A stretch of 42,029 nucleotides of DNA from an uncultured Zetaproteobacteria bacterium (GTDB lineage Bacteria; Pseudomonadota; Zetaproteobacteria; Mariprofundales; Mariprofundaceae): assembly GCA_964387725.1 (NCBI GenBank), contig CAYLYU010000001.1:2671-44699 (forward strand), given 5' to 3'. The notes beneath the pieces were generated by a model that had not been told where the DNA came from, ran no database searches, and saw only the letters and a list, made by a program, of their open reading frames with translations. Below are positions 21,073 through 25,281 of the stretch, piece after piece. The translations under genes were made by a program, and so were the position numbers. Position 1 is the first letter of the stretch; each line of letters begins with the position of its first letter.

Positions 21073-24000
21073 TCATGAAGAGCCTCTGACAATATAAGAT
21101 TTTAGGGCATACAGGCTACTGAGCAGCCAACCTCCCTTCTGACGTTGGTTAAGCTTATGCAACTCTATTGATGCCCTTTCGTGACTGATGCGCGTGGCTG
21201 CCAGTTCCTTGTATATTTTATTCGCGGTTTTTCTCCTTCTGACAGCATCACCCGTATCAAAAAACTCTTCAACCGCATCCACCATCTGTGCCAAACGGCC
21301 CTGGTCAGATGATTTGCGAAGCTGGGCGTGAACCTCCTGCATGGCATTTCCCAGGTTAGACTCAATAACGTTCAACTCGGCCTGAAAACGCTCACTCTGA
21401 CCCATCATTGAATGTCTGACATGCTCTATGCTTTCGTGAACATATTGTTCACTTAACAAGCCAAATTCCTGGAAGGATGACAGGCGCAACAAGCCTTCAT
21501 TTGCTACTCGTGGATCATCACTGCGCAGATTCTCGCAAGCTGAATAACAAGCATCCCAGGCCTGCCAGCGATACATAAAGTCAAGGCCGGTTCCTTTGAT
21601 ATTTTGCAGACCCATCATAAGGTTTGTAAATCCCGGTGGTGTCCCCTCACAAATACGTGCAATGACCTGCTCTCCAGTGGCATTGGCATCTTCAATAATG
21701 ATAAGTTTACTTTGAAACCATTTCCATTGCAGGGCATGGAACTCGTCATCCAGTGATTTATGACTGCCTGAATTCTCAGCTTGTTCAAGTTTCCCCAAGA
21801 ATGACTGGTATTCCTGATACTGCCCAAGTGAGTGTTGATGGAAAGAAATTATAGCTTCAGAATATTCCTTCACTCCTGCTTCCAAGAGTGCTTTATGAAG
21901 CGCTTCAGGCTCTTGCCATAAAGCGAGAAGACCATCCAAGTCCAGTTCGCTTCCCTGCCCTTTCAACATCACTCTCAATCTTGCCTTGAGCTTGGATTCA
22001 TCTGTTGGAATGCGGAGCAATTTTGCAGCTTGATGGGCAATCCCCTGTGATTGATGGGCGCCATCGTCTGACTCCTGCCACAGGGTTCTACCCTTACAGG
22101 ATTCATCCCAGGCCTTCTTGATATAACCTTGCAAACCGCTGAGGTTAGAACCGATAAGAAAGTGGCAGTCCGCCGATAGATCCTCAACCAGAATTTTTGC
22201 AAATGCACGAGATCTGGCAACACGATCGGCACGATTATTGACTACGGTAGAAATCCAGGTCTTGGGATCTTTTTCGGAGTCATGCTGACCAAAATTCATC
22301 CTTTCCCAGTTCTGCAAGCAGCCATAACGCTCATTAGCCGACATCCCGTTCACGAAAACAAGCTTTCGCGTTTGAAGTTTTGCTTCAGGATATTTTTTGA
22401 GAACGCCGATATCCGGAATAACACGATCGGCCATTTCCTTGAGGGCAAAATCATGTTCAACCCCCAATTCTTCAGCAAGAAGAAGCGTCAGAGCAATATT
22501 ATATGGATGTTCTTCATAGGGAAATCGTTGCAGAATATCCTCTGTTAATAAGCCTGCCTCAAGCCAGCCTATGTGTTTGAAGTTGGTATCGAGCTGCCGA
22601 CTGGCATCTCGCAAAACCGGTAGCATCTGCTCCTCACTGCAAAGCAGGGTGGATGAGCGTGGAATAAAGTTTGTCATCACCTCCGGAATATTGAAGCCGG
22701 CTGGCCCCTGTAAGTCTTCGTGATCCGGAAAGGCGTTCGTTATGGTTACAATATCATCTTTCATCCATTGGCGTTGCAGGATTTTAACATAGGAAGGAGT
22801 TAGCCCCATACACTCCCATAAAAATACGTCGGCTTTGCACCGGCCTGCCATTCGAACCAGATTGTACTGTTCCCAGATGGTTGCTTTATCATAAGAGCGG
22901 TAAAGTCCAAATTCATGCAATTTCCCGTACGGATATGAATTCAGAAACAGTGCTTCGCAGCCTGTTGTCTTTGACATTATACCGTAGCCAAGGGCATTAA
23001 AAACTGCCGCTTTCAATCTTTCAGTACCTGATTTCCCTCTGGTTCCCCAACCACCTATCACCAGGGGAAGCTGTTTACGTACCTTGGCAATAGCTCTGTT
23101 CATATAGATATGACGCCCAACAAAAAAGAGCAGAAATGCTGAAGCGAAGACGACCAACTCCTGCATTGAATTTTCATAAACGGAGAAGAAGTAATCCTGG
23201 ATACGAAACCATAGATCACTGTCACCTAAAGGCAATAAAGCCGGAAAAAAGCGGGTAACACTCGGGTCTGCCCCAAATTCAGGTCGGCCCGGGTATTGAT
23301 GGGGAGTCAAGCTTACCTTAAAGCCAAGGTCTTCGAGTGATTTGAGATAGGCATCGGCATCCAGCTGATCATCTTCCTTCCAGTTGCGGAGTCTGGCTAA
23401 GTGAGAAAACCTAAACTCCAGTCTGGCCATTGCCATCCACTGCCTGATCATTGAGCGCGGGGGCTGTAGTTTTGTAACTCCTTCACTACTATAAATATTT
23501 GTCGGTTTACCACTAATGTTGTGCTCAAGGCTGGACAGAACCTCATCCACCAGGGGTAAATATGGCCTCCAGCCCGATTCAGCAGACATAAGAAGTGGCT
23601 CGCCTGGAACCTTCGCCTCAGTCACCTCGGACATGATCGTCGAGGGGACACTGTTCCTGCCGCTAAATATTCGTCCAACAGTGTGAATAAAGCCTTGCCG
23701 TTTATCAGAGGATGGATTACGAAATTCGTGTAGAAAACGCCATAAACGCCAGCCAAACACGTGCCCACGCCTGATACTGCGGCGAAACCGGCTATCCTTG
23801 ACATCATAGCTAAAGTCACTTTGCGCGACAACTGACAAGACCCTGTGGAATAAGGCATCGTCAACTTCTGCAAAGCGTGACTTGCTTATTCGAAGTGCCT
23901 TACCGGGTTTGATCCGTCGAAGTTCCTCGCTAAGGGTTTCCTTAAGCTCACACGCCTGTGGATCTATTTCAGCCCAAACCTGTTCAGCTGCCTGCGCCGC

Positions 24001-25281
24001 CCAACGTCGAACGGAAAGGGATTCGGCATCACGATGTAGTTTATCCAGACTGGGAAAGATAGCTTTCTGCCAAATCTCAATTTCCTTCTCACCTGAACCG
24101 GCCTTAATTATATTAACAACTGTCTCCACAACCACTTTAAGGGCAACTCTCAAAACAAAGGCATCTTGCTCAAATTCAAGGGTTTCAAGCAGCAACGACA
24201 TGACAAGCTGATTGAGTTCCTGCCGCTGTAACAGCACCAGGGTTTCAAGCAGAGCAGATGCCCTCACCTCAGGGGCATCGTCCTGATGGGCAAGTTCAGG
24301 CAACCACCTCTGCACAACATCATTCGGTGCTGAACTTAGTGCCTTAGCCAATGCCTGCCTTACAAATGGACTAGGATCAACAACCACACTGGGAATAACT
24401 TCAGCCAATTCGGCAAAGCGTCCGATATACCGCCCCAATAACTTGACTGCGTGTCTGCGAACAAACATATCATCGCCGGGTTTCGGCTCAGATAACCGTT
24501 TCTTCAGCGCAAGAAGTAATGAGTCACTTGCGATACAGGCCAATAACCCCAGTGCCTCACACTGAATCCAGATATCTTGTCTTGTCTCAAAAGCAGAACG
24601 CTGAACATATAATATAGTACTTTCGGCTATAACCCCTTGCCGGGCATCTTCAGGCAGGGCCTTGATTGCTGTTGCAAGACATCTAAACGCCTCAACGCCA
24701 ACACGTTTATCACCATCGTAAGCAAGTAAAGGCTTCAGGGTTTTTTCCAGCTCAAACCGTTTCCAGGTTTTCCTTGTTCCGTCACTCGATTCAATTTGCT
24801 CCAAAGCAAAGGCGCTTATAACTCCCAATCGCTGCAGACAAAAAGCTACTTTCTGTTCGCTTGAGGCCAATTTTTTTCTATAGCGCTCTCCAGCAGCATC
24901 AAAACCAAACCAATCCGAAAAAGACTTACGGTCAGCTGCATGATTTTCTTCAGAAGAAGCTAGTTCCCTGGCGTAATCCAAAATATGCTGCCTTCTGTCA
25001 TCATCAGTGGAACATTCAACATAGCGGCGACTGAAATGAACATATCTCTGGCGCAGGGCCTGTATCTTTTTTAGGTCTTCAGTGATCGTATGTAACAGAA
25101 AAAGAACAAGTCGTTGTGCTGCAATGGTTTCCAGAGAACGTGATTCATCTGTAGAATCGTCAGGCAGGGCTGCCCAACTTCCAAATTCTCCCATTAAATC
25201 GTCGATCAGGAGTGATTCCACCTTCAACAAACGCGGATTGATATCAAGCTCTAGAAGTTTTCTTGAAGGCTCTGCGTTCAT
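21073..25281 (-). CDS. Giant fusion: ~700-aa HEAT-repeat region + hydrophobic helix + PgsB/CapB-type amide ligase (Mur-ligase fold) + coiled-coil tail
   Basis: 1402 aa. HEAT-like repeats: DMFVRRHAVKLLGRY, DPSPFVRQALAKAL, DDAPEVRASALLETL. Residues ~708-1265 are colinear with PgsB: helix LVVFASAFLLFFVG, P-loop GTRGKSGTERL (nt 23023-23046), SKTTG, WECMGLTP, TNAFPDHEDLQGP (22714-22728), FVNGMSANE, NNRADRV, GLQNIKGTG. Its start overlaps the upstream stop (TAATG). Confidence 0.75.
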   Translation of the reverse strand: MNAEPSRKLLELDINPRLLKVESLLIDDLMGEFGSWAALPDDSTDESRSLETIAAQRLVLFLLHTITEDLKKIQALRQRYVHFSRRYVECSTDDDRRQHILDYARELASSEENHAADRKSFSDWFGFDAAGERYRKKLASSEQKVAFCLQRLGVISAFALEQIESSDGTRKTWKRFELEKTLKPLLAYDGDKRVGVEAFRCLATAIKALPEDARQGVIAESTILYVQRSAFETRQDIWIQCEALGLLACIASDSLLLALKKRLSEPKPGDDMFVRRHAVKLLGRYIGRFAELAEVIPSVVVDPSPFVRQALAKALSSAPNDVVQRWLPELAHQDDAPEVRASALLETLVLLQRQELNQLVMSLLLETLEFEQDAFVLRVALKVVVETVVNIIKAGSGEKEIEIWQKAIFPSLDKLHRDAESLSVRRWAAQAAEQVWAEIDPQACELKETLSEELRRIKPGKALRISKSRFAEVDDALFHRVLSVVAQSDFSYDVKDSRFRRSIRRGHVFGWRLWRFLHEFRNPSSDKRQGFIHTVGRIFSGRNSVPSTIMSEVTEAKVPGEPLLMSAESGWRPYLPLVDEVLSSLEHNISGKPTNIYSSEGVTKLQPPRSMIRQWMAMARLEFRFSHLARLRNWKEDDQLDADAYLKSLEDLGFKVSLTPHQYPGRPEFGADPSVTRFFPALLPLGDSDLWFRIQDYFFSVYENSMQELVVFASAFLLFFVGRHIYMNRAIAKVRKQLPLVIGGWGTRGKSGTERLKAAVFNALGYGIMSKTTGCEALFLNSYPYGKLHEFGLYRSYDKATIWEQYNLVRMAGRCKADVFLWECMGLTPSYVKILQRQWMKDDIVTITNAFPDHEDLQGPAGFNIPEVMTNFIPRSSTLLCSEEQMLPVLRDASRQLDTNFKHIGWLEAGLLTEDILQRFPYEEHPYNIALTLLLAEELGVEHDFALKEMADRVIPDIGVLKKYPEAKLQTRKLVFVNGMSANERYGCLQNWERMNFGQHDSEKDPKTWISTVVNNRADRVARSRAFAKILVEDLSADCHFLIGSNLSGLQGYIKKAWDESCKGRTLWQESDDGAHQSQGIAHQAAKLLRIPTDESKLKARLRVMLKGQGSELDLDGLLALWQEPEALHKALLEAGVKEYSEAIISFHQHSLGQYQEYQSFLGKLEQAENSGSHKSLDDEFHALQWKWFQSKLIIIEDANATGEQVIARICEGTPPGFTNLMMGLQNIKGTGLDFMYRWQAWDACYSACENLRSDDPRVANEGLLRLSSFQEFGLLSEQYVHESIEHVRHSMMGQSERFQAELNVIESNLGNAMQEVHAQLRKSSDQGRLAQMVDAVEEFFDTGDAVRRRKTANKIYKELAATRISHERASIELHKLNQRQKGGWLLSSLYALKSYIVRGSS

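Follow-up and report, generated by a model that had tools for sequence, protein, structure and literature searches.

A HEAT-repeat protein with a divergent PgsB/CapB-type ligase core is encoded in a conserved five-gene envelope operon of diderm bacteria

Results

The ligase core is of the PgsB/CapB type

In a stretch of 42,029 nucleotides from an uncultured Zetaproteobacteria bacterium (GenBank assembly GCA_964387725.1, contig CAYLYU010000001.1, positions 2,671 to 44,699; this whole stretch is called the window below), an open reading frame (ORF) was found to encode a protein of 1402 amino acids (aa), here named HEAT-PgsB, in which a ligase of the PgsB/CapB type is joined to a HEAT-like N-terminal region. 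Its gene closes a five-gene minus-strand operon (Table 1) whose coupling is partly translational: the ATG of HEAT-PgsB and the stop codon that ends the ORF upstream, which encodes a giant protein of 1889 aa, have 1 nucleotide in common. A terminator-like hairpin past the ligase gene is the probable end of the operon, on weak evidence (1 found against 0.4 expected). An initial annotation of this DNA, made from its letters, had picked out the ligase within a HEAT-repeat fusion; what is new here is that the ligase is a subunit from a conserved envelope operon of five genes, among whose products is a tandem-PgsC fusion.

The ligase half of the protein matched the NCBIfam PgsB profile TIGR04012 (E=6.2e-59, 199.6 bits), residues 715-1057 covering positions 5-332 of the 380 in the profile, and, by BLASTP, the CapB protein of B. 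anthracis pXO2 (27% identity across 351 aa, E=3e-35), with query residues 708-1057 aligned to CapB 67-403. As residue 708 falls on CapB residue 67 (query 708-724 against CapB 67-83), the hydrophobic helix that stands just ahead of the P-loop aligns with the CapB anchor helix, bearing out the place that the initial annotation had given it. Rather than MurC-F, FolC or cyanophycin synthetase (CphA) giving the best profile, PgsB/CapB was the only ligase family whose profile matched HEAT-PgsB at all: models of the other families gave zero matches (NCBIfam at E<=1; Pfam, with no ligase family at E<=10), and the sole Pfam match of the protein was HEAT_2. In this the protein differed from the positive control, pXO2 CapB, which scored 592.8 bits against TIGR04012 and also weakly matched the MurC-F, FolC and cyanophycin synthetase models and Pfam Mur_ligase_M.

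The motifs by which residues ~708-1265 had been said to track PgsB were all present, these being LVVFASAFLLFFVG (709-722), GTRGKSGTERL (746-756), SKTTG (770-774), IWEQ (802-805), WECMGLTP (822-829), TNAFPDHEDLQGP (848-860), FVNGMSANE (976-984), NNRADRV (1015-1021), LIGSN (1042-1046) and GLQNIKGTG (1224-1232). In an alignment of 81 full-length homologues the catalytic motifs were invariant, and they also aligned to CapB; they comprise the P-loop (746-752), E823 and D853-H854 in the ATPase domain and NNRADRV in the C-terminal domain. These comparisons established the core as a divergent and, judged by its motifs, catalytically intact PgsB/CapB homologue.

The same alignment was the basis of two AlphaFold2 models, one of residues 203-1402 (predicted local distance difference test score, pLDDT, 86.2; predicted template-modelling score, pTM, 0.86; residues 1-202 lie outside it) and one of residues 455-685 (pLDDT 88.8). 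A Foldseek search with the larger model returned FPGS, MurC, MurE, MurT and the M domain of CphA1 (E~1e-6 to 1e-4, target template-modelling score, TM-score, 0.45-0.56). No solved PgsB structure was matched in the PDB, either in the fold search or in a sequence search with the full protein, which gave chance-level matches.

Modules around the ligase core

The initial annotation had placed ~700 aa of HEAT-like repeats ahead of the ligase, and this held for part of that length. Paired helices ran across residues 203-454 of the model, with a Pfam HEAT_2 match at residues 274-344 (32.1 bits, above the gathering threshold of 27.7), and the HEAT-like part ended at about residue 454. Residues 455-681 formed a separate alpha/beta domain, rich in invariant Arg, Lys, His and Glu. 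It carried the block RGHxFGFRLWRxLHE..PSPDKRQAFxHTxGR...ETKVPGEPL...GWRPYLPLVDE, better conserved than any other part of the protein apart from the ligase, and W514, R515, E519, K527, R528, H533, G536, R537, PGEP (559-562), R572, P576, L577 and D579 were invariant. A PDB structural match for this domain was not found by Foldseek, the best hits (E=0.42, TM-scores ~0.15) being weak resemblances to a kinase lobe which were treated as no match. The domain closes with the motif DPxVxRFFP and is followed by a linker, the sole stretch of the model with pLDDT below 50, in whose motif N704 is invariant.

Beyond the hydrophobic helix and the core, the insertion of ~130 aa that had been noted at residues ~1060-1190 was borne out by its removal in silico. 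Without residues 1058-1189, the least conserved portion of the ligase half, the PgsB profile match grew from 5-332 to 5-374 of 380 positions and the score rose to 215.3 bits, which shows that residues 1058-1189 are truly inserted and that the PgsB C-terminal motif includes GLQNIKGTG. The tail had been described as coiled-coil-like and ~140 aa long; it was indeed helical, but at ~170 aa it was longer, was well predicted and carried invariant residues (E1338, D1342, D1345, R1349 and GGW at 1383-1385), and was not simply a generic coiled coil. The N-terminus lacked a signal peptide, as had been stated, and the hydrophobic helix, described as the only such segment, was the only one that recurred in the 81 family members.

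Table 1. Features of the HEAT-PgsB operon and of the HEAT-PgsB protein, by position in the window.
Feature	Position	Strand	Remarks
CHASE2-domain sensor	38900..41620	(-)	Upstream of the operon; weak, sub-threshold matches to histidine-kinase models
Tandem-PgsC fusion, 1081 aa	35274..38519	(-)	Polytopic membrane protein; two PgsC/CapC modules
BNR partner, 1150 aa	31818..35270	(-)	One N-terminal hydrophobic anchor; BNR/Sortilin-type beta-propeller repeats
294-aa partner	30947..31831	(-)	Signal-like hydrophobic N-terminal segment; synteny conserved
Giant exported partner, 1889 aa	25281..30950	(-)	Signal peptide; SPOR domain at residues 647-719
HEAT-PgsB ORF	21073..25281	(-)	1402 aa and stop codon
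N-terminal region, residues 1-454	23920..25281	(-)	HEAT-like alpha-helical solenoid in the modelled part (203-454)
Alpha/beta domain, residues 455-681	23239..23919	(-)	Conserved; confident in AlphaFold2
Linker, residues 682-705	23167..23238	(-)	Variable length, then amphipathic motif W-x-R...YFFSVYEN; break site of split forms
Long predicted helix, residues 706-735	23077..23166	(-)	709-722 hydrophobic, then basic (R724, R729, K732, R734, K735)
PgsB/CapB-type amide ligase core, residues 736-1057	22111..23076	(-)	Mur-ligase-fold ATPase domain and start of the C-terminal domain
Helical insertion, residues 1058-1189	21715..22110	(-)	132 aa, inside the C-terminal ligase domain
C-terminal ligase domain resumed, residues 1190-1233	21583..21714	(-)	Strands 1193-1195 and 1219-1225; motif GxQNIKGTG
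Helical C-terminal region, residues 1234-1402	21076..21582	(-)	~170 aa; conserved, specific to the HEAT-PgsB family
Terminator-like GC hairpin and T-run	21030..21042	(-)	Starts 31 nucleotides past the HEAT-PgsB stop

HEAT-PgsB belongs to a widespread family with fused and split forms

A word-indexed search returned 89 clusters of relatives, nearly all of 1350-1550 aa and 38-52% identical to HEAT-PgsB, and residues 1-705, when scanned exhaustively with HMMER, gave 562 representatives at 50% identity, of which 312 had E-values below 1e-30. In a further scan, of one genome per species, at least 560 genomes carried a relative. The nearest was a 91%-identical cluster mate from a Mariprofundaceae metagenome-assembled genome. 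Relatives were spread over Zeta-, Gamma-, Beta- and Alphaproteobacteria, Desulfobacterota, Planctomycetota, Nitrospirae and Verrucomicrobiia, and included Mariprofundaceae and other Zetaproteobacteria, Thiomargarita, Parabeggiatoa, Methylococcaceae (Methylovulum miyakonense HT12, Crenothrix), Thiodiazotropha, Competibacter, Halomonas, Vreelandella, Halovibrio, Ramlibacter, Aromatoleum, Desulfocicer and Geobacter. Some members were already automatically annotated as 'PgsB/CapB' or 'related to CapB'; literature searches found no published description of the family or of its operon.

Of the best representatives of the N-terminal part (hereafter the N-module), about one in four was a protein of 670-690 aa that lacks a signal peptide and ends just past the nearly invariant DPxVxRFFP, the natural C-terminus of the N-module in split forms. 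At two split loci the next gene overlapped the N-module gene by 1-4 nucleotides and encoded a PgsB half of 727 aa (or a truncated one), which starts with M...YFFSVYENS and runs on into the hydrophobic helix. The adjacent, overlapping genes suggested that the fused protein arose by the joining of both, exactly in the low-confidence linker. A separate PgsB half made from an internal start at M706 of the fused gene was considered and rejected, as the Met is not conserved and the consensus residue is Leu. When 112 N-modules were placed in a neighbour-joining tree, the 21 split forms were scattered over 13 separate clades, amid 90 fused forms; this count of clades is approximate, the tree being crude and some split forms possibly being assembly frameshifts. 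Fusion or fission of N-module and ligase thus occurred repeatedly, and the stand-alone proteins mark the N-terminal ~680 aa as a separate evolutionary module which also exists by itself without a signal peptide.

The operon and its partner proteins

When 84 loci were fetched and searched by tblastn with the operon proteins of the window, the order PgsC-fusion, BNR protein, ~300-aa protein, giant, HEAT-PgsB was found in nearly every locus with sufficient upstream sequence, including loci of Azospirillum, Methylovulum, Halomonas, Ramlibacter, Desulfocicer, Geobacter and Planctomycetota. On a Candidatus Parabeggiatoa contig (L005, 3953-16123) the PgsC-fusion lay on the opposite strand and no HEAT-PgsB gene was present within 9 kb past the giant, an arrangement which implies that the operon can be rearranged.

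The first structural gene encodes a protein that matched Pfam CapC (PF14102, 1.3e-39) in two stretches, about 24-170 and 200-360, with a GxVVPGY motif aligned to pXO2 CapC. Its C-terminal ~700 aa are internally duplicated (RGWGIYVIDL..VEVPxPLxE..ALAIAG against RYWGTYxFRLG..VPRPLxE..ALLIxGAHP) and gave no sequence match in Pfam, NCBIfam or the PDB, where the profile search was at chance level. The 294-aa partner likewise had no family match. Homologues of the giant were 1650-2130 aa long, one of them carrying an OmpA domain in place of a detectable SPOR domain, and the C-terminal ~450 aa of the giant followed an alternating aromatic/hydrophobic pattern which, by eye, looks like an outer-membrane beta-barrel. 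Signal or anchor segments, the SPOR domain and the conserved synteny favour an envelope location for the partners.

Genes of the PGA_cap (PgsA/CapA-like) family adjoined the ligase gene in five loci (L086, L087, L039, L046 and L078). Their coordinates were 7560-10004 in L086, ~13966-15168 in L039, ~13836-14903 in L046 and ~14781-15902 in L078, and the L086 protein has 814 aa and a lipoprotein-like signal. After the operon of Azospirillum sp. (L002, 19302-22258) there stood genes for an amidase and a gamma-glutamyltranspeptidase, the latter 27% identical to pXO2 CapD; an association with CapD or gamma-glutamyltranspeptidase was not taken as a trait of the family, since it was seen only beside this locus.

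Sensors with a CHASE2 domain recurred beside the operon, in the window and in L003 (20063-23567) and L086 (14914-18354). The recurring proteins were kinase-like or SpoIIE phosphatases, sometimes accompanied by STAS, anti-sigma-type kinase or response regulator genes. The recurrence of CHASE2 proteins with partner-switching genes suggests dedicated signal control, and the sensor in the window is a probable regulator of the operon.

Discussion

Seating of the hydrophobic helix

The initial annotation had raised the point that, with the HEAT region lacking a signal peptide and the ligase needing ATP, the ancestral PgsB anchor helix may no longer cross the membrane in a simple way. Several of the present results support this. 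Stand-alone N-modules have no signal peptide; the split genes overlap and their break lies at the linker; the splits are scattered over 13 clades, which is hard to reconcile with two ends on opposite sides of the membrane; and the model that holds N-module and ligase together has a pTM of 0.86. Together these argue that both ends of the helix are probably cytoplasmic. The uncharged run of the helix is also short, at 14 residues in 51 of the 81 members as against 22 in B. anthracis CapB. We therefore lean towards a helix that does not simply span the membrane, and favour for it the part of a monotopic anchor, or of a plug that enters the tandem-PgsC bundle from the cytoplasmic side.

Two points weigh against this seating. 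The flanks of the helix obey the positive-inside rule for an N-out/C-in orientation across the family (net charge -2.0 on the N-flank and +3.8 on the C-flank), which is the pattern expected of a true transmembrane anchor and argues, at least in the split forms, against a non-spanning helix. Furthermore, the packing of N-module and ligase into one confident assembly, as we read the model, is taken from a single figure, the pTM.

A helix that still spans the membrane N-out/C-in, as assumed for Bacillus PgsB, with the fused linker (682-705) returning through the membrane, is the main alternative, and we regard it as rather unlikely. The return would have to follow a protein-lined path within the tandem-PgsC bundle, or take the form of a re-entrant loop or of a second pass of marginal hydrophobicity. 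Besides the flank charges, such a span would suit the residues of the helix, which vary across the family while staying hydrophobic, as they do in lipid-facing helices. It would also suit the N-flank, where an invariant Asn and a conserved Glu stand by an aromatic amphipathic stretch able to sit at the interface (mean hydrophobic moment 0.40 over the 16 residues ahead of the helix), and the 25-residue acidic N-tail of the split forms could be translocated. The linker, however, bears several charges and accepts long hydrophilic insertions, no second hydrophobic or re-entrant segment recurs across the family, the 14-residue run of most members is short for a span, and repeated fusion or fission at this site would be improbable were its two ends on opposite sides. 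That the entire N-module is periplasmic, with the helix as a reverse signal-anchor exporting ~700 aa, is highly improbable, as the flank-charge orientation is all that speaks for it, neither fused nor stand-alone N-modules carry a signal peptide, the model (pTM 0.86) is read as one assembly of the N-module with an ATP-dependent ligase, and we know of no precedent for the export of an N-terminal domain of that size without a signal peptide.

Proposed function of HEAT-PgsB and its operon

PgsB and PgsC occurring as a pair are a hallmark of polyglutamate synthases, and homologues of both are always present here. We consider it fairly probable that HEAT-PgsB serves as the polymerase of a PgsB/PgsC-type synthase adapted to the diderm envelope, a cytoplasmic amide-ligase subunit that depends on ATP, and that this synthase makes poly-gamma-glutamate or a close gamma-linked polyamide. 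In the mechanism that we envisage, which builds on what is established for PgsBCA (PMC3815933) and for Mur-type ligases, the ligase would activate the gamma-carboxyl end of the growing chain by phosphorylation with ATP and add glutamate to it, as proposed for PgsB. The tandem-PgsC module would then receive the chain and pass it across the inner membrane. Beyond it, the SPOR-bearing giant together with the BNR and ~300-aa proteins would form the periplasmic and outer-membrane route and stand in for PgsA in most genomes, with the giant tethered to peptidoglycan via its SPOR domain (or via OmpA in the one homologue). More speculatively, the basic alpha/beta domain and the solenoid may hold the polyanionic chain or dock partners, or the alpha/beta domain may instead receive a regulatory ligand, and the insertion and helical tail may contact partner proteins.

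Other observations weigh against assigning this product. Both the native score of HEAT-PgsB (199.6 bits) and that without the insertion (215.3 bits) lie under the curated equivalog cut-off of TIGR04012, 222.7 bits, so that the protein is a divergent PgsB-type ligase and not an equivalog by the NCBI criterion, and the same substrate and product as for PgsB are not to be assumed. No genes for PgsA/CapA (PGA_cap), CapD or glutamate racemase were present in the window, location signals and synteny are the basis for the roles given to the giant and to the BNR and 294-aa proteins, and literature searches found no experiment on any member of the family.

The same fold and operon could serve another chemistry, in which glutamate or another amino acid is added to a peptidoglycan- or lipid-linked primer, to a protein or to a mixed polyamide, and the product is a wall-attached modification or a new polymer instead of free poly-gamma-glutamate. 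The score just under the cut-off would fit this, as would the absence of PgsA from most operons, the peptidoglycan-binding SPOR domain of the partner giant, the extra conserved basic alpha/beta domain, and the place of the 132-aa insertion, which interrupts the C-terminal domain, the site where Mur-type ligases bind the incoming substrate. We nevertheless judge this chemistry unlikely, as the PgsB and PgsC homologues are found together, PgsA-like genes join the operon in some genomes and no other ligase family scores.

Returning to a synthase of polyglutamate type, we tentatively extend the proposal to all five proteins, as a possible, hitherto unrecognised and widespread envelope-spanning machine of Gram-negative bacteria that would polymerise and secrete a polyglutamate-type polyamide, with the PgsB anchor helix monotopic or docked to PgsC and the alpha/beta domain holding the chain or serving regulation; taken as a whole, this picture is held with less confidence than the assignment of the ligase.

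Comparison with known systems

HEAT-PgsB resembles Bacillus PgsB/CapB (TIGR04012; PgsBCA(E)/CapBCADE) in its helix before the P-loop, its two-domain Mur-ligase fold, its G-x-RGKS P-loop and its KTTG, ECM, DH and NxRxDRV motifs, and in being encoded together with a PgsC homologue. It differs in length, at 1402 aa against ~390 aa, the difference including the ~680-aa module of solenoid and alpha/beta domain, the insertion and the tail; in its helix, which is internal, has the shorter uncharged run and for which a simple N-out topology is disfavoured; and in its company, PgsA being usually missing and the partners being giant proteins of a diderm envelope. The operon's first structural gene shares CapC modules and GxVVPGY with PgsC/CapC (PF14102, TIGR04011), but carries two modules in one chain, fused to the internally duplicated soluble domain of ~700 aa. 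With the Mur ligase superfamily (MurC-F, FolC/FPGS, MurT, CphA1 M domain) HEAT-PgsB shares the fold, and an ATP-dependent acyl-phosphate mechanism would be expected from it, whereas it has neither a sequence-profile match to those enzymes nor a Mur-type UDP- or substrate-binding N-domain.

In working principle only, the operon can also be compared with the synthase-dependent systems by which Gram-negative bacteria secrete exopolymers (cellulose Bcs, alginate Alg, Pel, PNAG Pga), as it would have an inner-membrane polymerase complex with partners that appear exported or anchored and bear repeats and peptidoglycan-binding modules, in one operon beside a sensor, and possibly, as judged by eye, an outer-membrane barrel in the giant. 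Here a polyamide made by an ATP-dependent ligase would replace the product of a glycosyltransferase. The searches run found no homology of the partner proteins to components of those systems, and no c-di-GMP receptor was identified in the operon. Fusobacterium nucleatum is likewise a Gram-negative with PgsB/PgsC-type genes; these, going by an operon figure legend, we take to be of ordinary size and without giant partners. It was the sole Gram-negative shown to make poly-gamma-glutamate as of a 2013 review (PMC3815933, citing Candela et al. 2009), in which neither a HEAT fusion nor giant partners are described for it.

Nearly all that is understood of polyglutamate synthesis comes from Bacillus, and the HEAT-PgsB family brings PgsB/PgsC-type genes to hundreds of Gram-negative species, in which they stand among conserved genes for giant envelope proteins without a described function. 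The carriers span methanotrophs, giant sulfur bacteria, iron oxidisers, Competibacter, relatives of Halomonas and Planctomycetota, and several are cultured, among them Halomonas daqiaonensis CGMCC 1.9150, Vreelandella massiliensis, Methylovulum miyakonense HT12, Ramlibacter rhizophilus, Aromatoleum evansii KB740 and Desulfocicer vacuolatum DSM 3385. If the proposal is true, polyamide capsules or sheaths would be much commoner in the environment than thought, and the operon would offer a first model of a polyglutamate-type polymer crossing two membranes. Through the fused and split forms, the true seating of the PgsB 'anchor' helix in the membrane would become directly accessible to genetics, and a carboxyl-rich polymer could aid sheaths, capsules or metal binding in iron-oxidising Zetaproteobacteria, sulfur oxidisers and methanotrophs. 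As the closest relative came from a Mariprofundaceae genome, identity of the operon with the sfz cluster of the zetaproteobacterial twisted stalk was also considered; it was rejected, as CapB, CapC and PgsB are nowhere named in the paper describing that cluster (PMC8250860), whose Sfz2 is a glycosyltransferase.

Neighbouring genes in the window

The genes downstream of the operon and in the remainder of the window, among them pyrE and those for RNase J, FtsK, LolA and FadL, are housekeeping genes of a diderm and unrelated to the operon. Positions 1-14450 hold two COX1-type oxidase genes, COX2, CtaA, a UbiA-type prenyltransferase (likely haem O synthase), cytochrome b561, an MFS transporter and an MgsA-type AAA+ ATPase, an ordinary respiratory and housekeeping set that is consistent with a microaerophilic proteobacterium.

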